Positions 17,305-28,290 are shown, counted from the first letter of the stretch. The stretch is 64,000 nt of DNA from an uncultured delta proteobacterium (GCA_963746605.1 CAVVCH010000053.1:183465-247464), one strand, 5' to 3'. The notes: generated by a model not told the origin, from the letters alone. Made by a program: numbers and translations.

Positions 17305-17545
17305 CGGGATTAGTATTATATGACGTGTTCGCAAAAAAGTTCTTCAGCGAAGTTTTGTCATTCTGAGCGAATGCGAAGAATCTCGTTTTTTCAACAGGTC
17401 GAAATCCTTCGCGGAGTTTATCCTGAGCTGGAAGACGAGATCCTTCACTTCGTTCAGGATGACAAGGCAGGCGAAGGACTCAGTATGACAAGCCGGCGAG
17501 GGCCGGATGACAAGCGAAAGGCCAAGGATGACAGTTTGAAACATT
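17305..17545. repeat. repeat-rich intergenic region (GTCATTCTGAGCGAATGCGAAGAATC-type element plus 4 copies of GATGACAAG)
   Basis: Short direct repeats and palindromic segments. The spurious ORFs listed here overlap them. Confidence 0.4.
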
Positions 17546-19349
17546 TTGCGAGGTCATCACTATAATATGCCTCCCAATGACTTCGGTTATTTTGAAGGGG
17601 AGCACTTGGGCAAGCCGTACGATTTGGGGTTGCTCAAGAAGGTCTTTCCTTATTTGTGGCCCTGGCGATTTCGATGGCTGCTGGTCATGGTACTGACCCT
17701 GGCCGGGACCGCCCTGGACCTGATCCCCCCCTACCTGACCAAACTGGCTATTGACCAATTTATTCTTAAGGGGCGGATCCAGGGCCTGGAGTTCTTGGCT
17801 TTATTGCTACTGGTGGTCCTGGTTTTGGGCTATGGTTTCCAATATGCCCAGGTGGTGCTCATGGAACAATTGGGCCAGCGGGTGATGCATGCCCTGCGCC
17901 TGGACTTGGTGGCCCATCTCCTGTCGCTGCCGCTGCCCTTCTACCAGGAGCACCCGGTGGGACGGCTGGTTACCCGGGCTACCAACGATATCGAGAACCT
18001 CAACGAGATGGTCAAGTCACTGCTCTCCACCCTCGTTAAAGATATCCTGCTGTTCTTGGGGATCATGGGGGTCCTTTTCTATTTAAATTTTAGGTTGGCC
18101 CTGATCACCTTTGCCGTCCTGCCGATCATCTTTGTGGCCGCCCGTCTTTTCAGCCGGAAGGCCCGGGACGCCTTCCGGGATTTGCGTCGCTGGGTAGCCC
18201 ACCCTGAATTCCTTTATCCAGGAAACCCTCTCCGGCATGACGCTCATCCAGCTCCTGAAAAAGGAAGCGATGAGGGCGCAGGACTTCCGATGGGTGAATC
18301 ACCAGACCTATTTGGCCGGGATGAAGCAGATTCAGGTTTTTGCGTTGTTCATGCCGCTCATGGAATTGATTTCGGCCGGGGCCGTGGCCCTGCTGATCTG
18401 GTACGGCGGCGGTCAGGTCATTCGCCAGACTCTCACCCTGGGCGCCCTGGTGGCCTTCCTGTCGTACATCCAGATGTTTTTTCGTCCCCTGCGGGAGTTG
18501 ACCGAAAAATATAGCGTCCTGCAGTCGGCCATGGCCTCTCTGGAGCGAATTTTTGCCCTGATGGAGGAAAAGGCCGAGGAGGGACCGGATGAAACTTTGT
18601 TCCGGCGACCGACCCGGGTCCAGGGGGAGATTACCTTCGATCGGGTCAGTTTTGCCTATCAAGCCGAGGATTGGGTGCTCCAGGACATTTCTTTTACCAT
18701 CCGCCCCGGAGAAGCGGTGGCTATCGTCGGGATGACCGGGGGGGGTAAGACCACCCTGATTCAGCTCCTGGAGGGCTTCTATACCCCTCAGAAGGGACAA
18801 ATCCGGATCGATGGGCTCCCCATCCAGTCCTTTCCCAAAAAATTCTTGAGGACCTTGGTGGGGTTGGTTCCCCAGGAGGTCTTTCTCTTCGCCGGGGACC
18901 TGAAAGAAAATATTTTATTGGCGGATAAGGAAACCCTTTCTTCCCGGGACGATCCGGAAAACATATGGAAGGAAATCCAGCCCCTTTTCCAAGACTTCCA
19001 GGGAAGAAAGGTCGACACCCTGTCCTCCGGAGAACGGCAGTTGGTGGCCATGGCCCGGGTTTTAGCCCGGGACCCGTCGATCCTGGTTCTGGATGAGGCC
19101 ACCGCCCACCTGGACGCCCAGACGGAAGAAAAGGTTCAGACGGTCCTGGGAAAGCTGCTGGCCGGCCGGACCTCGCTGGTCATCGCCCACCGGCTGTTTA
19201 CCCTCCGCCAGGCCTCTCGGATTATGGTGCTGCACCAGGGCCGCCTGGTCGAGGAAGGGACCCACGCGCAACTCATGGAGCGGAAAGGGTACTATTACCG
19301 GTTATACCAGTTGCAGTATAACGAGGTTCAAAATGGGGGGGGTTATTGA
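17546..19349 (+). CDS. ABC transporter permease/ATP-binding protein, apparent frameshift near 18200-18212
   Basis: Transmembrane domain in ORF 17546-18514 and the rest in ORF 18237-19349. The expected ...RRWVA-LNSFIQETLSGMTLIQLL... is split. Walker A GMTGGGKTT, signature LSSGERQLVAMARVL. Probable heterodimer partner of the upstream ABC gene. Confidence 0.8.
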
Positions 19350-19470
19350 CGGTCTCTTTATTGTATTTACAGGTGATTTCTCGTCATCCCCGAAAGCCTT
19401 TGTCGGGGATCCGGTGTTTCTTAAAAAAACCTGGATTCCCGCTCAGAAGCGCCGCGGGAATGACGCTTTA
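19350..19470. repeat. two palindromic hairpin elements (ATCCCCGA-N9-TCGGGGAT and TTCCCGC-N11-GCGGGAA)
   Basis: REP-like hairpins downstream of the ABC gene that may act as terminators. They share the GTCATCCCCGAAAG / ATTCCCGC motif style. Confidence 0.4.
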
Positions 19471-19481
19471 TGATGTTTGGA

Positions 19482-19829
19482 TCATTTGGATTTTGGACCT
19501 TTGTGCTTGTTTCGGCCTGCGACGAGCTCAGTCGGGGCGATTTTCGTGCTTCGGATTGCAAAGTCAAAGCCCGCTTCAAAATGCAAACCGGAGGCATCCA
19601 CTTGGTGCAAACGGATCCGGGACAACAGCCCGGCTCTTTCGGCGCGGCGTCGGACACCGGCGAGCATCTCCGGCTGCAAGTCCACGGCCGTCACGTTCCC
19701 GGAGGGTCCGACTATTCGGGCCAGGGGAATCGTGAAGTAGCCGATCCCACACCCGAGGTCCAGGCACGCTTCCCGGGGGTGAACGAGATCCTGGAGAATC
19801 CTCTCCGGCTTCTGGACGAGACGCCGCAC
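19482..19829 (-). CDS. class I SAM-dependent methyltransferase, truncated (115 aa)
   Basis: Motif I LDLGCGIGYFT is present. The protein ends soon after motif II, at roughly half the usual length. Confidence 0.55.
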   Translation of the reverse strand: MRRLVQKPERILQDLVHPREACLDLGCGIGYFTIPLARIVGPSGNVTAVDLQPEMLAGVRRRAERAGLLSRIRLHQVDASGLHFEAGFDFAIRSTKIAPTELVAGRNKHKGPKSK

Positions 19830-19846
19830 GAAGTTGTCAAAGGAGT

Positions 19847-20293
19847 TTAATCTTCGCCTACAGCTTCTAGATCCGCAATATCCTTCTTGCGTCCCAAAGC
19901 TCTTTTATTTACTATAAAGTCATCACGGCCTATGTAATGAACCATCAAATCACCAAACCACCCTTCAACTCTGCCCGATTGCGCCTGCTCCCATTGAACC
20001 CCGGTAATCGATGTTATAATGTCTATCCTGACCGGTGGAACCCCAAGTTGAACGACTTTACCCTCTTTCACAAAATCCGCCGCTGTCAAACCAACTGCCC
20101 CAAACCCAAACTCATTAAGGGCGTGCATGATGCTTTTTGCATTTATAGGGTCCGGCTTCACAAAGACGTCAAGGTCACCTGTGTATCGCGGGGCGCCGTG
20201 AAATCCCAGTGCGTAAGCCCCTACAATGATATAATCAACCTCGTATTTGTTGAATAACTCGAGCAGATCTCTGAAGTCTTGCTGAACTTCCAT
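19847..20293 (-). CDS. minimal nucleotidyltransferase-fold protein (toxin-antitoxin or defence-associated type)
   Basis: IIVGAYALGFHGAPRYTGDLDVFV fits the hG[GS]...DxD nucleotidyltransferase motif. 148 aa. Confidence 0.55.
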   Translation of the reverse strand: MEVQQDFRDLLELFNKYEVDYIIVGAYALGFHGAPRYTGDLDVFVKPDPINAKSIMHALNEFGFGAVGLTAADFVKEGKVVQLGVPPVRIDIITSITGVQWEQAQSGRVEGWFGDLMVHYIGRDDFIVNKRALGRKKDIADLEAVGED

Positions 20294-20426
20294 GGTATTG
20301 TCCCCTTAAGAATTCAATTGCTACGATTCGTTCTTGAGGTGTTTTGCTTAGCCAGTAGGCCAGATCTTTCTTAATTGACGAATCGGTTTTCAAATCAAGT
20401 TTCTTAACGGTTTTTTCAATCATCAT
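20235..20426 (-). CDS. small hypothetical protein (63 aa), probable partner of the nucleotidyltransferase
   Basis: Overlaps the nucleotidyltransferase gene start by 59 nt on the same strand. Confidence 0.4.
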   Translation of the reverse strand: MMIEKTVKKLDLKTDSSIKKDLAYWLSKTPQERIVAIEFLRGQYHGSSARLQRSARVIQQIRG

Positions 20427-20557
20427 TGTCCCCCTGTATCTCCAGTGGTCGATATCAAAGCCTTTCCCAAGTTCGCTACTCCCGGATCAATCTGATGCTT
20501 CGCTTGTGCCTGGCCAAACATGCTGCCGCACGCGATCAAAAAAAAGAAACGCCCTCA

Positions 20558-20588
20558 GGAAACTAAATGAATATTCATAAGTTTCTCC
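20558..20588. other. 27-bp imperfect palindrome centred on ATGAATATTCAT, followed on the minus strand by a T-run
   Basis: AAACTAAATGAATATTCATAAGTTT. Possible terminator or recombination-site hairpin 3' of the SRPBCC cassette gene. Confidence 0.3.
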
Positions 20589-20606
20589 TTTCTATTCAGA
20601 AAGACT

Positions 20607-21062
20607 TCATAGGCCCACCGGCATGTCGTAAGGATGCGGACGGCCTTTGCCCGTCTCGACAAATTCCTTGAGGCTAAGCAGGAAAAGCACCCAGTGCATC
20701 GAGGTCCGAGGGAACATTTGGGCATCCTCGCGCCATTTTGAGTGGCGAAGGTGAAGAAACGTTTTGTCGCCTTCGCAGAAGATTTTCCATTCAATTTCGG
20801 TGTTGACCCAATCAGGATCGCTCCGCTCAGTTGCGCGCCACCGCACGAGTTCATCAACCTTCAGAGTGGTTACAACCATCTCCTTTAACCATTTCCCATA
20901 AAACCAGAATTCCAATTTCTTCCCGACGGCAGATTCCCCCTGCGTCTCGGTGGTCCACCAATGCGCTAGCTTTTTCACTTCGGTCAACGCTTGGTAAAGC
21001 TCGCTGGGGGAAGCTTTGATGATCATTTCATGCCAGATTTCACGATATGCCATTGAAAACAC
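20607..21062 (-). CDS. SRPBCC-superfamily protein (AHSA1/START-like)
   Basis: 151 aa. W-rich beta-grip pattern typical of activator-of-Hsp90 ATPase 1-like bacterial proteins. Confidence 0.7.
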   Translation of the reverse strand: MFSMAYREIWHEMIIKASPSELYQALTEVKKLAHWWTTETQGESAVGKKLEFWFYGKWLKEMVVTTLKVDELVRWRATERSDPDWVNTEIEWKIFCEGDKTFLHLRHSKWREDAQMFPRTSMHWVLFLLSLKEFVETGKGRPHPYDMPVGL

Positions 21063-21180
21063 CTCCTCTTCTAATGAAGTATGTCAAGCATATAGTTTCG
21101 GTCTCTGTCCGTTAAGACCGTTTGTGTTGTGGCGGCTTCCAGCCTTTTTGCCCCCCTTATCTAACCTCTTTTGTTCTCCT

Positions 21181-21321
21181 GGCCTTATGCCCATCCCCCA
21201 GGATGAGGAGCGCGACGTTGGCGCGTCTGCTCGATCCGTTTGATGGGCCGGGGACCCGCAGGCCTAAAAACTTGTTGACGGGGGCGCTCCGCAGCCTGGG
21301 GGATGGGCATAAGGCCAGCGG
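21181..21321. repeat. attC-like (or MITE-like) imperfect palindromic element, copy 1
   Basis: 22-bp perfect terminal inverted repeats GGCCTTATGCCCATCCCCCAGG / CCTGGGGGATGGGCATAAGGCC. The inner arms carry bulges. The central 111 bp (21198-21308) is identical to 24008-24118. Confidence 0.6.
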
Positions 21322-21408
21322 CCCATCGTTCAAACTCAGCCGCCGCCCATGAGCCGCGCAGGCGGCTTATGGGCGGTCGGCTGGAGTGCCTTGTTGGGCG
21401 TCACGCTT

Positions 21409-21888
21409 TCAGAAATCAAGGGGTCGTTCCGAAATACGCCGCACGAAGCCTAATTCGCTCGCCTTGGCCTTGCCTTTCCGCCGAATGGTATCGAGGGCGA
21501 CCGCGGCACGGATGAGTGCTTTGAACGCGTCCGCATCGACCTCCGCCCCCTCATGGATGTCAATCGCGCGCCTTACGTTCCCGTCGAGGCTCGAGTTGAA
21601 GAGCTTGGCCGGGTCCTTCAACGCAGCACCCTCGGCGAAGGTGAGTTTCACTTTGTCCTTGTAGGTCTCGCCGGTGCAGATGATCCCGTCGTGGGACCAC
21701 ACCGGGACTCCCAACATCGAGTTCGACGGCTTTCTCCATTTCAACTCCTCGACCACATCTGGGTCTGCCTCTTTGATGAGCTCGCGCATCCTGCTCAACG
21801 TCGCCCCGTGCCAGTCCGCGAGCTCGGCGATTCTTTTGTCAATCAGCTCAGATGCTGACTGGCCCTCGGTCGAACCCGACTTTTTCAT
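21409..21888 (-). CDS. DUF1801 (YdhG/YjbR-like) domain protein
   Basis: 159 aa, with the characteristic C-terminal WHG...L segment of DUF1801 proteins. Confidence 0.65.
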   Translation of the reverse strand: MKKSGSTEGQSASELIDKRIAELADWHGATLSRMRELIKEADPDVVEELKWRKPSNSMLGVPVWSHDGIICTGETYKDKVKLTFAEGAALKDPAKLFNSSLDGNVRRAIDIHEGAEVDADAFKALIRAAVALDTIRRKGKAKASELGFVRRISERPLDF

Positions 21889-22060
21889 GTTCTCCTCCTA
21901 AAACTTCCAGATTCTTCCAGAATGCCTTCAAACGACTCAATCGTCGTAACTTCTCCACGCCGCTAGAGAAACGGTGGATGAAGCCGCCGCGCGCAGCGCG
22001 GTCGGTTGGAGCGACTCGTTGGGCAGCCGGAGATTCAGCTTGGAGTTCCGCCACAATTAT

Positions 22061-22516
22061 TCACTTCTCCAAAAACTTCTTCAGACCAGCAAGCATCATG
22101 TCCCAATTCTTCTGGGAGTGTTCACGCGCTTCTTCCGTCGGATTGTTGTCCTGGGCCAGGGAGACAAGGGTTTGGGTTTCCTTGGACGTGAGCTTGATGG
22201 TCACCGTGTGATAGTTCTCCGGCTGATCCGGAAGCCCGGAGAACGGACTGAAATGCGTGTATTGGAGTAGCCGTTTTGGATCACAATGGAGAATCACTCC
22301 TTTGTCCTCGTACGCCTTGCCTTTCCACTCGCCTTTCCATGTGATTGGGCTCCCCTCGCGCCAATCGGATGCGACGTCGGTGCCGAACATGTACTCTTTG
22401 ATGGCTTGTGGATTAACGAGCGCATCCCAGACCTTGGCGACTGAGGCGTCAATGGTGGCCGACGCCTTTGCGATCAGATCGTTCTTCATAGGTCGTTCCT
22501 TTCTTTGGCCACCCAT
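22061..22516 (-). CDS. SRPBCC-superfamily protein (AHSA1-like)
   Basis: 151 aa. VWDALVNPQAIKEYMFG...W...W pattern. Confidence 0.7.
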   Translation of the reverse strand: MGGQRKERPMKNDLIAKASATIDASVAKVWDALVNPQAIKEYMFGTDVASDWREGSPITWKGEWKGKAYEDKGVILHCDPKRLLQYTHFSPFSGLPDQPENYHTVTIKLTSKETQTLVSLAQDNNPTEEAREHSQKNWDMMLAGLKKFLEK

Positions 22517-22644
22517 TCGATGTGATGCCGCCCAACGCCTTAATCAGCGGCGCGGCCCTTTGCGTCCGCTGAATTTAGATGGTATGCTCAGTAGTTTAGA
22601 TATACCTTCTACCGGCCTAGTGCAGCCAGTACATCATCATGGAT

Positions 22645-23313
22645 TTAACCTTCTCGTTTCATCTTCTCGCGGCGTGCGACTTCCGCCGGTGTGGGAGGGT
22701 CCATAGTGAAATCCCCGGTCTTGACTGCACCGTCGCGTACATACTTCGCAATTAAGATGCCATTGGGCGATGTCCGGTTCGCAATCAGTCGAAACGCCCC
22801 AGCTCTTGAGCCAGCGCCAAACAACTTCTTTCCTTGCCCGAGGATGATTGGGAATGTAAAAATATTGATCTGATCGACGAGGTCATCCGCAAGCAGCGTT
22901 TGGATCAAGTCGGTACTGCCCTGTGTAAGAAGCGATGGTCCTTCCTCCCGTTTCAGCTTGGCGACATCTGACGCTGCGTCACTGAGGGCCACCGAATCCT
23001 TCCAGGTCAGATCCAAGCCCTTCCGGGTAGCAACATACTTCGTGACTGAATTGAAAGTCTTGGCAATGGAATCATCGGGCCCGCCCTCGGCATAGGGCCA
23101 GTGGGCCGCGAAGATCTCGTAAGTCTTTCGACCGAGCAACAAGTCGTACGGCTCGCTTAACATCTTGCCAATCTCTTCGCCGAAAACATCGTCCACCAGT
23201 GGCGCTACCCAGCCGCCGTGGTTGAATCCCATAGTAGGATCTTCAAGAGGGCCTCCGGGCGCCTGCATGACGCCGTCCAAGGAAACCATGGCTCCGATTA
23301 TTACTTTTCTCAT
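22645..23313 (-). CDS. dihydrofolate reductase-family protein (RibD C-terminal domain / YwjB-like)
   Basis: MRKVIIGAMVSLDGV...LLLGRKTYE...FTFPIILGQGKKLF, typical of bacterial DHFR-like proteins. Confidence 0.8.
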   Translation of the reverse strand: MRKVIIGAMVSLDGVMQAPGGPLEDPTMGFNHGGWVAPLVDDVFGEEIGKMLSEPYDLLLGRKTYEIFAAHWPYAEGGPDDSIAKTFNSVTKYVATRKGLDLTWKDSVALSDAASDVAKLKREEGPSLLTQGSTDLIQTLLADDLVDQINIFTFPIILGQGKKLFGAGSRAGAFRLIANRTSPNGILIAKYVRDGAVKTGDFTMDPPTPAEVARREKMKREG

Positions 23314-23494
23314 AAATCACACTCCTTTCTTGTCCCATAGTGTAAGGTAAAAATGGGCATGGTTAACCCGCCACTCGTTCGGGCCGGAACATGTTATCCC
23401 CAAGGTCGAAAACAAAAGTTCATGAGCGAGGAGGTTCGAGTCCGCCCGTCATGTACCTATTGCAGCTCCGTGAGTACACTGCTACTGTGCAACC

Positions 23495-23980
23495 TCAACC
23501 GCGGCGCGCCGACTCGATAGCAGCGATGTCGATCTTTGTCATCTGCATCATCGCATCGAACGCGCGCTTTGCGACGTCGGGATCGGGATCGGTGACCGCT
23601 TTCGTTAGAGCGATCGGCGTAATCTGCCAGGATAATCCCCACTTATCCTTGCACCAGCCGCACACGCTCTCCTGGCCGTCGTTGCCAACGATCGCGTTCC
23701 AGTAGCGATCCGTTTCGGCTTGGTCATCGGTTGCGACCTGAAACGAAAACGCTTCGCTGTGCTTGAACGTAGGTCCACCGTTGAGCCCGAGGCATGGAAT
23801 GCCCATCACGGTAAACTCGACGGTCAACACGTCTCCTTTCTTCCCCGACGGAAAGTCTCCAGGGGCACGGTGCACCGCGCCGACGTACGAATCGGGAAAG
23901 GTCTCGGCGTAAAATCGCGCTGCGTCCTCGGCATCGCCATTGTACCAAAGGCAAATCGTGTTCTTTGCAGATTTCATCAT
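23495..23980 (-). CDS. VOC-family protein (PhnB / 3-demethylubiquinone-9 3-methyltransferase-like glyoxalase fold)
   Basis: ICLWYNGDAEDAARFYAETF...VEFTVMG...FSFQV pattern of PhnB-like VOC proteins. Confidence 0.8.
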   Translation of the reverse strand: MMKSAKNTICLWYNGDAEDAARFYAETFPDSYVGAVHRAPGDFPSGKKGDVLTVEFTVMGIPCLGLNGGPTFKHSEAFSFQVATDDQAETDRYWNAIVGNDGQESVCGWCKDKWGLSWQITPIALTKAVTDPDPDVAKRAFDAMMQMTKIDIAAIESARRG

Positions 23981-24002
23981 GTCACTCCTCCTTCGATGGG
24001 AT

Positions 24003-24125
24003 AACCCCCAGGATGAGGAGCGCGACGTTGGCGCGTCTGCTCGATCCGTTTGATGGGCCGGGGACCCGCAGGCCTAAAAACTTGTTGACGGGGGCGCTCC
24101 GCAGCCTGGGGGATGGGCCGCCGGC
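24003..24125. repeat. attC-like (or MITE-like) element, copy 2
   Basis: Same 111-bp core as copy 1, with shorter terminal inverted repeats. It is followed by the perfect palindrome ATGGGCCGCC-GGCA-GGCGGCCCAT. Confidence 0.6.
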
Positions 24126-24335
24126 AGGCGGCCCATTCGCGGCGACGAAGTCAGCGCCGCGATTCTCGGGGACGCAGTCGCCGAGAACAAGTTATTCTAA
24201 AGCTTCTGGATAACTCCCCGAAAATAACTATCCTCTGGGGATTATAAACAACTACCATTGGTTGTTTTTGGATAACCAATGGTCCGCCAACCCTTCCAAA
24301 TTACAGCTAACTCATTATAAATAATAAATATTATC

Positions 24336-24363
24336 TTGACAAATTAATTTTATTTCCTAAAAT
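24336..24363 (+). promoter_or_regulatory. near-consensus sigma70 promoter (TTGACA-N16-TAAAAT)
   Basis: Consensus -35 TTGACA and -10 TAAAAT, both read from the sequence. The -10 ends 1 nt before the first in-frame codon of the IntI-homologous ORF, so that ORF has no 5' UTR or RBS. Confidence 0.5.
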
Positions 24364-24958
24364 TTGAACCATGTATATTCATCAAATGATGTGAAAGAGT
24401 TTTTGACCTTTTTGGCCGTAAAACGAAAGGTCTCGGCTACCACGCAAAACCAGGCCTTTAATTCTCTGCTTTTTTTTTATCGGCATGTCCTGAACAAAGA
24501 ATTCGGAAAGATCGACGGAGTGGTCCGGGCCAAACGAAAGCCGTATATCCCGGTCGTTTTATCCCGGAAAGAGATCGAGACCGTCTTAAAGCACTTGGAG
24601 CCTCCTTTTGATCTGGTCGTAAAATTGCTATACGGCTAAGGAGTTTATCTGGCAATGGTTTTTCCCAGCCAAAGTTTTAACCGTTGAGAATAAGACCGGG
24701 GAACTTAGACGTTACCATCTGCATGAAACCCATGTGCAAAAGGCGATCAAACAGGCGGTAGACCAGGCCAGGATTTCCAAGCGGGCAAGCGCCCATACCT
24801 TTCGACACAGCTTTGCCAGTCATCTGTTACAGGCCAATTATGATATTCGGACGATCCAGGAACTGTTGGGGCATAGCGACGTCAGAACCACTATGATTTA
24901 CACTCATACCGTGAAGAGCGTCACGATCAAGGAGGCCAGGAGCCCCCTGGATTTTTAA
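24364..24958 (+). pseudogene. intI: integron integrase, degraded (N-terminal about 55 aa missing, internal deletion of about 75 aa, and a frame change)
   Basis: Fragment 1 (SNDVKEFLTFLAVKRKVSATTQNQAFNSLLFFY...LLYG) matches the IntI N-terminal SAM-like domain. Frame 2 from 24623 (EFIWQWFFP...[41 protein letters not shown]) matches the IntI C-terminus, including the IntI-specific WxW segment. The catalytic box I region is absent. Confidence 0.85.
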
Positions 24959-25866: not shown

Positions 25867-28290
25867 CTAACGCCTAATCAGCGGCAGGTAGATCCCGTTA
25901 CCAGTTAGCTTTTCCTCTACCGTGTAGGTCTCGCCACTGGTGTATGGCAGGCCGGCCAGCGGGTTCCCGGCCTGATCGGCAATGGTTGCGCTGGTGGGCA
26001 CATCCAGGCGGAGGGTGCCGTTTCCGCTGTCTCTGTTGACAGTCACAGTGTAGATTGTCGGGCCGCCACTGACGCCCGTGACAGATTCGCCACTGATAGC
26101 GCCGGTTTTGGTCAGGGCGAAATCGCCTGCAGCCACTCCTGTCACGGATTCGGAGAAGGTGACCGTGAAGTTCATGCTGGCGAGATTGGTCGGGCTGGGA
26201 TTGGCGCGGATGATGGAAGTGACGGTCGGCATGGTCGTGTCCACCACAACCGCGCGTGGGGAAGCGAAGACGGCGGAGACGTTGCCGACCGCGTCCTTTG
26301 CCCAAGGGTACAAGGTGTAGGAACCATCAGAAGCGACCGTATAGGTGGTGGGAGCGGTACCAGTCCAGCCGGCCACGCCAGCCGCCGGCGCCGTGGCGGA
26401 GGTGGTGATCAGGTAGCCGGTCACGCCGACAGTATCCGAAGCCGTGAAGGCGGTGATGGGGATGTTGAGACTGTTGGAGGGCGTGGTGACGGTAAAGGTG
26501 TTAACTGTCGGGGCAGTCGTGTCCACCACAACCGTGCGCGGGGAAGCGAAGACGGCGGAGACATGGCCGACTCGCGTCCTTTGCCCAGGGGTACAGGGTG
26601 TAGGAGCCATCAGAAGCGACCGTATAGGTGGTGGGAGCGGTGCCAGTCCAGCCGGCTGCGCCAGCCGTAGGTGCGGTGGCGAGGTGGTGATCAGGTAGCC
26701 GGTCACGCCGACAGTATCCGAAGCCGTGAAGGCGGTGATGGGGATGTTGAGACTGTTGGACGGCGTGGTGGCCGTGAAGGTGTTTACTGTCGGCGCAGTC
26801 GTGTCCACCACAACCGGGCGTGGGGAAGCGAAGACGGCGGAGACATTGCCGGCCGCGTCCTTTGCCCAGGGGTACAGGGTATAGGGGCCATCAGAAGCGA
26901 CCGTATAGGTGGTGGGAGCGGTGCCAGTCCAGCCGGCCGCGCCAGCCGCAGGTGCGGTGGCGGATGGTGGTGATCAGGTAGCCGGTCACGCCGACAGTAT
27001 CCGAAGCCGTGAAGGCGGTGATGGGGATGGTGAGACTGTTGGACGGCGTGGTGGCCGTGAAGGTGTTCACTGTGGGTGCGGCAAAATCATACATGCTCAA
27101 AGGCGCCGATGTCGCAGTGCGCGCCTTGCGGACGGGTGACGCCGCGCTGGTCGGTGGCCGGACAGGTGGCATCGTTGCCCGTGTCGATGGCGGATGAACC
27201 CGCCAGGAGCGGGATGGTCTGGGTGAAGCCGCCATAGTTGCCGAGCGTGCCGAGCAGGGGATCAGCGGTGATGATGTTCGTGCCTCCGGCATACCCACCC
27301 TGCACGACACTGTCGCTCACGACTGGGAGTACTGCTGTCAGTTGTAAATCTGCGCTCCGCCGGAAGCCGTATTGCCCCAGAAAATCGTGTTGCGGATCTG
27401 CGGATTGCTGCCGACTTCGTTGTACATCCCGCCGCCGGTGCTGTGTTGCCGAGTTGCCGCTGAAGGTGACGTTCGTCAACGTCGGACTGCTGGTATCAGT
27501 TGTACATCCCGCCGCCGTTAAGGTTGTCGCCGAGTTGCCGCTGAAGGTGACGTTCGTCAACGTCGGATTGCTGGTAGTATCGTTGTACATCCCGCCGCCG
27601 TCGTATCGCCGAGTTGCCGCTGAAGGTGACGTTCGTCAACGTCGGGCTGCTGCTGATCCAGTTGAACATCCCGCCGCCGTCGCTGCTCGCCGAGTTGCCG
27701 CTGAAGGTGACGTTCGTCAACGTCGGACTGCTGCTGTATACGTTGTACATCCCGCCGCCGTAGTGTCGGCCGAGTTGCCGCTGAAGGTGAGGTTCGTCAA
27801 CGTCGGGCTGCTGGAATCGTTGTACATCCCGCCGCCGCTATCGTTGGGATACAGCGCCATTGGCATTGCCCGCCGTGATGGTGAAGCCATCCAGGGTTGC
27901 GCCGGTTGCGCCGGTGACCACGTGATAACTGTTGGTGGTATTGCCGGTCACGGTAGTGAGGTCGGTAATGATCGGCGTCTGGCTGTCGTTATTGTCAATG
28001 TCGCCGCTCAGGATGGTGACGTTGGCCGCAGGGTTGCGCTGGTTGCGCGCCGTCTCCGTCCCGGCGAAACCGCCGTAGACCGCCACGCCGTTCTTGAGTT
28101 GGAAGGTGGCGCTGCGGTCTGTTCCCGCGTGGTCGGCTTGTACGTCCCGGCCGCGACCCAGATCTCGTCGCCGCTGACGGCGCCGGTCAGCGCAGTTTGC
28201 AACGTGCAGGCATTCGCCCAACTTTGACAATTGCCCGCTGCCGCTGGCCGCCGGTTTGACATAGTAAGAATGCGTGTCATGCATATTCAT
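25867..28290 (-). CDS. large secreted repeat protein B: choice-of-anchor-Q / right-handed beta-helix region plus 4 C-terminal Ig-like tandem repeats. Fragmented across at least 4 frames.
   Basis: [30 protein letters not shown], then [20 protein letters not shown]..., repeated [21 protein letters not shown] units, [52 protein letters not shown], then about 90-aa repeats (VVDTTAPTVNTFTATTPSNSLNIPITAFTASDTVGVTGYLITT). Frame breaks fall in the repeat DNA. Confidence 0.5.
26215..27085. repeat. tandem array of about 270-bp coding repeats (about 3.2 copies, over 90% identical)
   Basis: Repeated unit GAAGCGACCGTATAGGTGGTGGGAGCGGT...GTGTCCACCACAACCG read directly from the sequence. It encodes the Ig-like repeats. 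Confidence 0.7.
27420..27840. repeat. tandem 60-66-bp coding repeats (GCCGAGTTGCCGCTGAAGGTGACGTTCGTCAACGTCGGACTGCTG...)
   Basis: At least 6 consecutive copies. Encodes the [12 protein letters not shown] beta-helix rungs. A second array lies at 28633-29010. Confidence 0.65.

Follow-up and report, generated by a model that had tools for sequence, protein, structure and literature searches.

Positions 19350–24958 of a 64,000-nucleotide (nt) stretch of DNA from an uncultured delta proteobacterium (GCA_963746605.1 CAVVCH010000053.1:183465-247464; this whole stretch is hereafter the window) very probably hold the decaying remains of a chromosomal integron from a Desulfobacterota (Thermodesulfobacteriota) bacterium; the recombinase has been lost and the cassette array is partly retained. 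Several observations support this reading directly: the homology of two integrase pieces, the structure and model matches of attC sites, exact recombination junctions, and a differing array in a syntenic relative. The array lies on the minus strand and extends from the attI crossover, between 24188 and 24187, down to approximately 19480. As a type of locus it is an ordinary, well-known genomic fossil that matches decayed integrons described earlier. The related loci with which it is compared are designated by L numbers, and the arrow (↓) marks a recombination junction.

The Integrase Pseudogene

The integrase gene, intI, survives as two pieces that together occupy 24388–24958 on the plus strand:

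24388–24637, plus strand: intI pseudogene piece 1, from the end of the SAM-like domain to ...LVVKLLYG; its 5′ end is cut by a deletion of approximately 670 nt
24630–24958, plus strand: intI pseudogene piece 2, in a different frame, from the IntI-specific segment through the catalytic HxxR...H...Y region to the stop codon

For both pieces the best NCBIfam model is that of the integron integrase, TIGR02249, ahead of XerC, XerD, and XerA. Piece 1 scores 92.3 bits over profile positions 42–127 of 315 and piece 2 scores 102.8 bits over positions 242–313 of 315, both below the cutoff of 265 bits. A sequence-only reading of this DNA had proposed that two plus-strand fragments at 24364–24958 match IntI in both of its domains. 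The match holds for TIGR02249 and for Pfam, which assigns Phage_int_SAM_4 and Phage_integrase to the open reading frame (ORF) fragments 24364–24639 and 24734–24958 (both plus strand). The homology starts at 24388, and the codons NHVYSS that open the first of the proposed fragments are promoter sequence rather than integrase, since they are conserved in the promoter region of the relative L003. Three-frame translation gives the second piece a longer open frame than the one starting at 24734, and this frame includes the IntI-specific segment. The WxW segment and the HTFRHSFA... motif named in the same reading are indeed seen in the translations and the alignment, the former as FIWQWFFP. Used as a query, the joined fragments matched thousands of homologs, of which the best are named "integron integrase" and are 85–91% identical over the aligned part; the top homologs come from metagenome-assembled genomes (MAGs) of Syntrophobacterales, Desulfobacteraceae, and Thermodesulfobacteriota. 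The integrase fragments had no blastn match to any PLSDB plasmid record.

The extent of the loss was measured in two ways. In an alignment to five homologs, the window lacks the whole IntI N-terminus and an 80-column block, CGLRLFECL...HDGKGQKDR...KYKNA, that contains the box I Arg and the conserved Lys. At the nucleotide level, the closest relative is L003 (GCA_043798385.1), in which 1337–1586 corresponds to window 24388–24637 (85% identity) and 1824–2152 corresponds to window 24630–24958 (84.5% identity). By these breakpoints the central gap is a single 245-nt deletion of approximately 82 amino acids (aa) accompanied by a frameshift. Window 24308–24363 and the adjoining ATTTGATGAATATAC match the L003 promoter region at approximately 583–665, and this match together with the L003 breakpoints puts the 5′ deletion at approximately 670 nt, a loss that takes in the start codon along with the gene's 5′ third. 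The N-terminal loss amounts to approximately 64 aa relative to a 334-aa IntI and approximately 214 aa relative to the 485-aa ORF of L003. Both losses are larger than the estimates made from the sequence alone (about 55 N-terminal and about 75 central residues). The accompanying proposal that the box I Arg is gone and the integrase inactive agrees with both the alignment and the L003 breakpoints: a complete ORF with the residues R-K-H-R-H-Y is absent, as there is no start codon, the Arg and the Lys are missing, and the frame is shifted.

Promoters and the attI Site

Upstream of the pseudogene lie two promoters, an attI region, and a short remnant:

24336–24363, plus strand: Pint-like promoter directed toward intI, TTGACA-16-TAAAAT, 11 of 12 consensus positions
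24314–24342, minus strand: Pc-like cassette promoter directed toward the array, TTGTCA-17-TATAAT, 11 of 12 consensus positions
24188–24276, minus strand: attI region, core ...TTAGAATAAC TTG↓TT, with the crossover between 24188 and 24187
24137–24187, minus strand: 51-nt remnant without an ORF, with two small hairpins by sequence and fold, between attI and the first 132-nt unit

The two near-consensus promoters overlap back to back. A near-consensus σ70 promoter at the intI 5′ end had been noted before; it is recovered here as the plus-strand promoter, together with the divergent second one. The Pc-like promoter is conserved in L003, L124, L125, and L127, and Pint is listed as conserved together with Pc and TTAGAATAACTTG↓TT in L003, L005, L124, L125, and L127. 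Judged by its sequence, the conserved minus-strand promoter would fit the cassette promoter Pc, and it probably drives expression of the proximal cassettes.

The attI region contains direct repeats of GTTATCC at 24276–24270 and 24214–24208 (minus strand). Its motif TTAGAATAACTTG (24200–24188, minus strand) recurs in L003, L005, L124, L125, and L127, and in each of them the likeness breaks off immediately past the G; with the following TT the motif occupies 24200–24186. Six related loci carry its left half, joined past the G to unrelated DNA. We placed the crossover by comparing this junction across the relatives. The sequence after the G is TTCTCGG in the window, TTATGCC in L003, TTCGGTG in L127, and the 132-nt unit described below in L005, L124, and L125. 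Thus, given that unrelated sequence follows the shared G in all relatives, the attI crossover lies at G↓TT, between 24188 and 24187. The 51-nt segment beyond it opens with TTCTCGG, contains CCGAGAA, and ends in ...GCGA instead of G. No homolog of this segment was found, and it may be a collapsed cassette.

Cassettes, attC Sites, and Junctions

The ORF-bearing part of the array consists of the following units:

23367–24004, minus strand: VOC (3-dmu-9_3-mt) cassette, ORF 23980–23495, Pfam E 8e-49
22536–23366, minus strand: RibD_C (DHFR-like) cassette, ORF 23313–22645
21953–22535, minus strand: SRPBCC/AHSA1 cassette 1, ORF 22516–22061, with an uncertain 3′ boundary
21327–21952, minus strand: DUF1801 cassette, ORF 21888–21409
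20427–21194, minus strand: SRPBCC/AHSA1 gene 2 (Pfam) with its flanks, ORF 21062–20607
19847–20426, minus strand: small ORF and DUF6036-like nucleotidyltransferase, ORFs 20426–20235 and 20293–19847, with a weak DUF6036 match
19482–19829, minus strand: fragment of a class I SAM-methyltransferase, Pfam Methyltransf_25, profile positions 2–70 of 97

To search for attC sites we used a covariance model, R1, that was built from 12 different class 1 plasmid attC sites only (six class 1 integrons). Its starting point, the aadA1 attC with the start of the 3′-conserved segment, was confirmed as 100% identical to PLSDB records, and its annotation covers only the R box and the 3-bp and 6-bp parts of the L-box stem. 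The whole 64 kb was searched on both strands with filters off, and matches at E < 10 were listed. There are seven. The top three, and five of the seven overall, lie in the array on the minus strand within 19350–24200, which makes up 3.8% of the search space (binomial p of approximately 1.5e-6), and each of the five begins 10–96 nt after a stop codon:

21399–21321, minus strand: attC after DUF1801, 30.7 bits, E 1.9e-5, best in the window
22587–22530, minus strand: attC after RibD_C, 18.8 bits, E 0.023
21248–21189, minus strand: attC formed by the inner 60 nt of copy 1 of the 132-nt repeat, 17.5 bits, E 0.05
22024–21953, minus strand: attC after SRPBCC1, 11.4 bits, E 1.9
23399–23361, minus strand: short and weak attC after VOC, 8.6 bits, E 9.9

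A search of the spacers with an attC model had been suggested as a check on the integron reading, and it thus returns three matches and two weak ones, all on the minus strand after ORFs. At the Rfam gathering threshold there was no match in the window; Rfam appears to be without an attC family.

The site after DUF1801 reads GCCCAAC-AAGGC-ACT-[C]-CAGCCG-[A]-CCGCCC...GGGCGG-CGGCTG-AGT-TTGAAC-G↓ATGGGC, a layout of 7-5-3-[x]-6-[x]...6-3-6-7 that is also the layout of the aadA1 attC. When its bottom strand is folded, the R box is paired, the central spacer is unpaired, and an extrahelical G and T stand opposite the arm with the cleavage triplet; the paired R box, the unpaired spacer, and the extrahelical bases are attC features described in PMC5027507. 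In an independent scan for AAC...GTT hairpins, which is noisy at lower ranks, this site ranks first in the window. It resembles class 1 attC sites (aadA1, blaVIM-11) in its box layout and extrahelical-base positions, and it shares CAGCCGACC...GGCGGCTGA with the blaVIM-11 attC. Unlike class 1 integrons, the array has no resistance genes in its cassettes and the integrase is of a different IntI lineage.

By rule, a cassette opens with six bases that are complementary to its own R″, and two junctions follow this rule: G↓TTGGGC at 22536 precedes the SRPBCC1 cassette (R″ = GCCCAAC), and G↓TTATCC at 24005 precedes the VOC cassette (R″ = GGATAAC). Other sites are damaged. In the RibD_C attC, R″ is mutated to GCATACC (AAC to ACC) and R′ is G↓TTGGGC. 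The SRPBCC1 attC has an intact R″-L″ half (GCCCAAC GAGTC GCT-C-CAACCG-A-) and a broken 3′ half. Neither R1 nor hairpin folds detected an attC 3′ of SRPBCC2, of the small-ORF/nucleotidyltransferase pair, or of the methyltransferase fragment. The imperfect palindromes that had been described in the spacers are therefore attC-type hairpins after the four proximal ORF genes, and none was detected for the distal genes. The boundaries at the SRPBCC1/DUF1801 junction and all those distal to 21194 could not be placed.

Two R1 matches fall outside the array and were rejected as attC sites:

25910–25865, minus strand: match in coding sequence, 11.7 bits, E 1.6
17872–17939, plus strand: match in coding sequence, 12.3 bits, E 1.1

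The minus-strand match lies beyond intI as seen from the array, in the 3′ coding end of the ORF 25867–26811, and was judged to be chance because its R″-like half is absent in L005. The plus-strand match was judged to be chance because it is inside coding sequence.

The ORF-less 132-nt Unit

Two elements of 132 nt complete the array:

24005–24136, minus strand: ORF-less 132-nt cassette copy 2, ATGGGCC...CCTGGGGG; the next cassette starts TTATCC
21195–21326, minus strand: ORF-less 132-nt cassette copy 1, then G↓ATGGGC; its inner 60 nt (21248–21189) have canonical attC geometry

The two copies are 95% identical with an identical core of 114 nt, and they are the only copies in 64 kb, where none is expected by chance. 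A repeat in two spacers had been seen in the sequence-only reading; it is real and 132 nt long, with an identical core of 114 nt rather than the 111 proposed. The terminal inverted repeats attributed to it are present in copy 1, as 35-nt inverted arms of 94% complementarity, and the outer part of these arms is missing in copy 2 and in the other copies. We conclude that the repeat is more than an attC-like spacer: it is an entire cassette that has no ORF, and it belongs to a lineage-specific attC family.

This conclusion draws on copies from elsewhere. A scan of genome contigs used a loose pattern (17 specified bases), so that the matches listed are mostly due to chance; among them at least two are genuine, those of L005 and L081, both deltaproteobacterial MAGs. 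A metagenome scan yielded 16 further loci with the unit. All 18 further copies beyond the window stand in cassette context, with their homology breaking off at G↓TT(RRRY), and seven abut an attI-like motif, which is not the scatter that would be seen for transposable elements. Read in the direction of the cassettes, the copies have one sequence in common as far as ...GCGCTCCTCATCCTGGG(G/C)G and nothing in common beyond it. With both window copies counted, 16 of the 18 distinct right junctions are G↓TT (such as GTTAGGC, GTTAGAC, GTTAAGC, GTTAGCC, and GTTGGGG) and two are G↓AT. Twelve of the 13 ORF-less copies begin with ATGGGC and have R″ GCCCATC, and the remaining one (L133) begins with TTGGGC and has GCCCAAC. 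Seven ORF-less copies come immediately after the attI motif, which has diverged in some of them (L005, L081, L124, L125, L128, L132, and L134). The variants in L131, L136, and L138 start with GCCCAAC or GGCCAAC right after unrelated coding sequence and are ordinary attC sites of ORF cassettes, and L129 keeps only the inner 60 nt. R1 recognizes the inner 60 nt as attC in the loci of five relatives and finds more canonical attC sites of the same orientation near relatives' units, for example at 560–502 in L133 (35.1 bits). The units of the window are 88–96% identical to copies in other integrons.

The canonical AAC/GTT triplet of the R boxes is absent from the unit, in which R″ is GCCCATC at both the outer and the inner positions. 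The unit holds two nested candidate attC sites with one common R′, the inner one of 60 nt and the outer one of approximately 114 nt; both R″ are GCCCATC in the ORF-less copies, but in the variants that carry an ORF the outer R″ reads GCCCAAC or GGCCAAC. Compensatory changes affect the R box, where AT/AT has become TT/AA in L133, and the neighboring helix, where C-G has become G-C three times. In our own three-helix model, 92.7% of cells pair, compared with at most 55% when the partners are slid; with only two covarying pairs the covariation is modest, and of these two double-change pairs only the R box of L133 is informative. Given the 16 copies, RNAalifold settled on another local fold, in which compensatory pairs are lacking. 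A coding reading of antisense ORFs of 76–87 aa that run through the unit was ruled out, since two compensating 1-nt indels in L081 shift the frame of 13 codons. No σ70-like match was found inside either window copy.

It is possible, although we regard it as rather doubtful, that the unit is a cassette consisting of attC alone that propagates itself from integron to integron within one Desulfobacterota clade and is cleaved at 5′-ATC-3′ instead of 5′-AAC-3′. The attI-type sequences of L128, L132, and L134 have diverged at approximately 7–9 of their last 19 positions (by eye), and the units there are 88–93% identical. If such a cassette exists, its circular junction would read GGGGG↓ATGGGC, natural IntI would tolerate a cleavage triplet other than AAC, and a cassette could persist free of cargo. 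Situated immediately past Pc, the unit might in addition serve a structural or regulatory function. The AAC/GTT triplet is the only stretch conserved among all attC sites and yet "is not important per se" (PMC5027507). Given this statement, an ATC unit at G↓AT is a testable curiosity and not a contradiction. An ORF-less attC family with ATC/GAT R boxes at many attI sites would offer a natural test of whether IntI cleavage needs AAC, and this is the sole point of wider interest that the locus raises.

Array Content and Integrase Loss in Related Loci

Cassette content varies between related genomes, as seen in one syntenic relative, L005. The SDR gene adjoining the locus is 87% identical over 1.25 kb between the window and L005. 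In L005, attI and the ORF-less unit are arranged as in the window and are then followed by a DUF1330-like ORF and a VapBC pair. A gene order conserved as a stable operon would have spoken against an integron; the order is not conserved, because the cassettes of L005 differ. Exact-protein look-ups of the DUF1801, SDR, and ABC transporter proteins found nothing on record; for the VOC protein the sole match is a 1.1-kb piece from a near-identical strain.

In this clade intI has been lost repeatedly and in varied ways, and attI and the ORF-less unit have persisted each time. The loci concerned are L005 5741–6230, L125 4310–4439, L131 1877–2001, L135 1765–1889, and L127 at approximately 1700–2010. 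L005 keeps approximately the first 20 intI codons only, after which a 23S_rRNA_IVP-like gene follows, and L125, L131, and L135 retain only IntI residues from approximately 99 to 145. The closest intact IntI is a continuous ORF of 485 aa at 695–2152 of L003, with an N-terminal extension of approximately 170 aa that has no Pfam match. Database entries for the L003-type IntI clade are annotated at only 290–347 aa. Several relatives (the upstream parts of L005, L127, and L132) share the IntI start (MLAIP.../MPAIP...) and its ribosome-binding site, which lie immediately past Pc.

A Model for the Decay of the Locus

We propose the following history. In the ancestral layout, intI would have been transcribed rightward, with Pint and Pc back to back and attI next to them. 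Cassettes would have entered leftward at the attI G↓TT by IntI-mediated attI × attC recombination, and the minus-strand cassettes would have been read from Pc, each with its own ribosome-binding site. IntI was then lost through two deletions, of approximately 670 nt at the 5′ end and of 245 nt internally, which cost the gene its start codon, its N-terminal third, the box I Arg, and the conserved Lys and put the remainder out of frame. From then on the locus itself could have catalyzed no recombination, and erosion of the array would have proceeded from its distal end. The survivors are Pc and attI, both intact, the two 132-nt ORF-less cassettes, and four ORF cassettes (VOC, RibD_C, SRPBCC, and DUF1801) with attC sites in varied repair, followed by a distal tail (SRPBCC, the small ORF with the nucleotidyltransferase, and the methyltransferase fragment) that has no detectable attC. 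The distal genes are probably former cassettes, and the array is likely to be frozen now unless an IntI encoded elsewhere acts in trans.

Some of the results weigh against this interpretation. R1 is an ad hoc attC model from 12 sites with rough E-values, and it finds one attC that is strongly significant, two that are borderline, and two at noise level. SRPBCC2 and the three distal genes have no detectable attC, so their cassette origin is inferred. The variation of the array is seen in a single syntenic relative (L005), and the near-identical strain fragment L001 (1.1 kb, 99.5%) has the gene order of the window. The lack of scattered 132-nt copies in the source genome applies to the 64-kb window, and the R boxes of the repeat are ATC/GAT where the canonical ones are AAC/GTT.

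Alternative Explanations

The main live rival is a working integron, in which an intact IntI elsewhere in the genome or on a mobile element acts in trans and the array is still turning over. In its support, preservation is good for attI, for Pc, for a textbook attC, and for the pair of nearly identical ORF-less units, and the identity of these units, 95% to each other and 88–96% to the copies of other integrons, suggests recent mobility. Approximately half of all integrase-less attC clusters occur in genomes with an IntI elsewhere (PMC4889954), which also counts in its favor. Set against this, several attC sites are broken (the AAC of one R″ has become ACC, one site has lost its 3′ half, and the distal genes have none), the near-identical strain fragment has the same order, and intI loss recurs in L005, L125, L127, and L131. 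The ORF listing and the local model searches point to no second intI in the 64-kb window, although no dedicated scan with an IntI profile was made. On balance we consider continued activity in trans improbable.

Two further explanations deny that the gene row is a cassette array, and we give both very little credence. The 132-nt repeats could be miniature inverted-repeat transposable elements (MITEs) in an ordinary genomic island beside a degraded phage-type integrase. An ORF-less unit of approximately 130–140 nt has the size of a MITE, the arms of copy 1 form the expected inverted repeat, and the R boxes do not have the canonical AAC triplet. The outer parts of these arms are absent from copy 2 and the other copies, however, and no target-site duplication was seen. 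Homology ends at G↓TT on the right and at the G after attI on the left, an attC score is obtained for the inner 60 nt both in the window and at the loci of five relatives, and variants of the unit act as the 3′ ends of ORF cassettes. No copy is present in the other 58 kb of the window, and the integrase is specifically IntI (TIGR02249). The MITE explanation is thus largely refuted and very improbable. More improbable still is an ordinary co-regulated operon for stress or detoxification that resembles a cassette array by coincidence. Its genes all point the same way and have a strong promoter upstream, and VOC, SRPBCC, DUF1801, and RibD_C genes often co-occur in bacterial genomes. The spacers, in contrast, measure 17–383 nt, with attC-type hairpins in the ones that follow the four proximal ORF genes; GC content is heterogeneous (0.38–0.61), and the closest DNA relatives of the genes are in different phyla. 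We consider the operon explanation refuted because L005 has different genes at the same site.

Comparison with Known Systems

A decaying chromosomal integron has close counterparts. In the chromosomal integrons of Xanthomonas, inactivation of intI by frameshifts or large deletions is the rule, as summarized in bioRxiv 10.1101/2025.06.18.660453. As there described (Gillings et al. 2005, cited therein), those integrons share with the present locus a fixed chromosomal position, an inactivated intI with a retained array, array content that is identical within close strains and different between lineages, and cassettes mostly of unknown or accessory function. The locus differs from them in belonging to Desulfobacterota, in its flanking gene (SDR and not ilvD), in its short array (approximately eight units), and in its attC family.

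In the terms of IntegronFinder, the locus would be classed as a CALIN (an attC cluster without integrase) accompanied by an intI pseudogene, a call that rests on our own model R1. A CALIN is defined by at least two attC sites less than 4 kb apart and no intI gene call (PMC4889954), and here at least three attC matches lie inside 1.4 kb beside an intI pseudogene, as determined with R1 and not with the model and thresholds of IntegronFinder itself. IntI pseudogenes were found within 10 kb of 15 of 279 CALIN (Cury et al. 2016, PMC4889954). The locus is like these in having a cluster of at least two attC sites and no functional integrase, and unlike a CALIN in that attI and Pc are also recognizable, so that the platform minus its enzyme is preserved. 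Sedentary chromosomal integrons are recognized by more than 19 attC sites or by presence in 100% of the genomes of a species (PMC4889954), and the array of approximately eight units falls short of the former number.

The 132-nt unit resembles the Vibrio cholerae repeats (VCR) and other lineage-specific families in being a long attC (approximately 114–132 nt) whose whole sequence is approximately 85–95% conserved within a clade. Unlike VCR, it is present in two copies only, in a small array, and its copies are mostly ORF-less; its R boxes are GCCCATC/GATGGGC, and a canonical 60-nt attC is nested in a longer palindrome. ORF-less gene cassettes are already known (Tansirichaiya et al. 2019, PMC6557892). 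Like those, the unit is essentially an attC without an ORF and is often first in its array; neither 132-nt copy has a σ70-like match.

The locus adds a case of integron decay with base-level junctions from outside the usually studied Proteobacteria. Here deletions have eroded intI but spared Pc, attI, and part of the array, and the related loci represent other stages of the same erosion. For annotation, it means that the small VOC, RibD_C, SRPBCC, and DUF1801 genes found here are horizontally acquired cassettes and not a native operon.

Cassette Genes and Neighboring Features

The eight minus-strand ORFs belong to the families that had been named from the sequence alone, with which Pfam agrees: VOC, RibD_C, two AHSA1, DUF1801, the nucleotidyltransferase with its partner, and the methyltransferase fragment. 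The range of 120–350 bp given for their spacers was too narrow at both ends. The VOC gene (23495–23991) is 86% identical in nucleotide sequence to a plasmid-borne VOC gene of the cyanobacterium Crinalium epipsammum PCC 9333 and 83–85% identical to genes of Kovacikia and Gemmatirosa (83% for Gemmatirosa), a pattern of identity which suggests that it moved between phyla fairly recently. For the DUF1801 gene, identity to a Caballeronia gene is 79%. The small ORF and the nucleotidyltransferase have low GC contents (0.38 and 0.47), and the pair looks like a toxin–antitoxin module.

The methyltransferase fragment is probably the distal end of the decayed array, and its 3′ end runs into a generic intergenic repeat. 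G+C-rich hairpins resembling repetitive extragenic palindromes (REP-like) are found at 19350–19481 and 17320–17565, with the sequences GTCATTCCCGCG...CGCGGGAATGAC and GGATCCCCGAC...GTCGGGGATCC, and a repeat of GGATTTTGGACCTTTGTGCTTGTTTCGG is found at 19474–19515, equivalent to 5471–5512 of L137. These hairpins and the GGATTTTGGACCTTTGTGCTTGTTTCGG repeat produce spurious ORFs and a false C-terminus of the methyltransferase fragment, and they are generic intergenic repeats and not parts of the integron. Beside the locus, 25867–28290 contains large repetitive ORFs with units of approximately 282 nt (repeat families D1, D2, and D4) that are shared with L005 and encode tandem-domain, probably surface, proteins.

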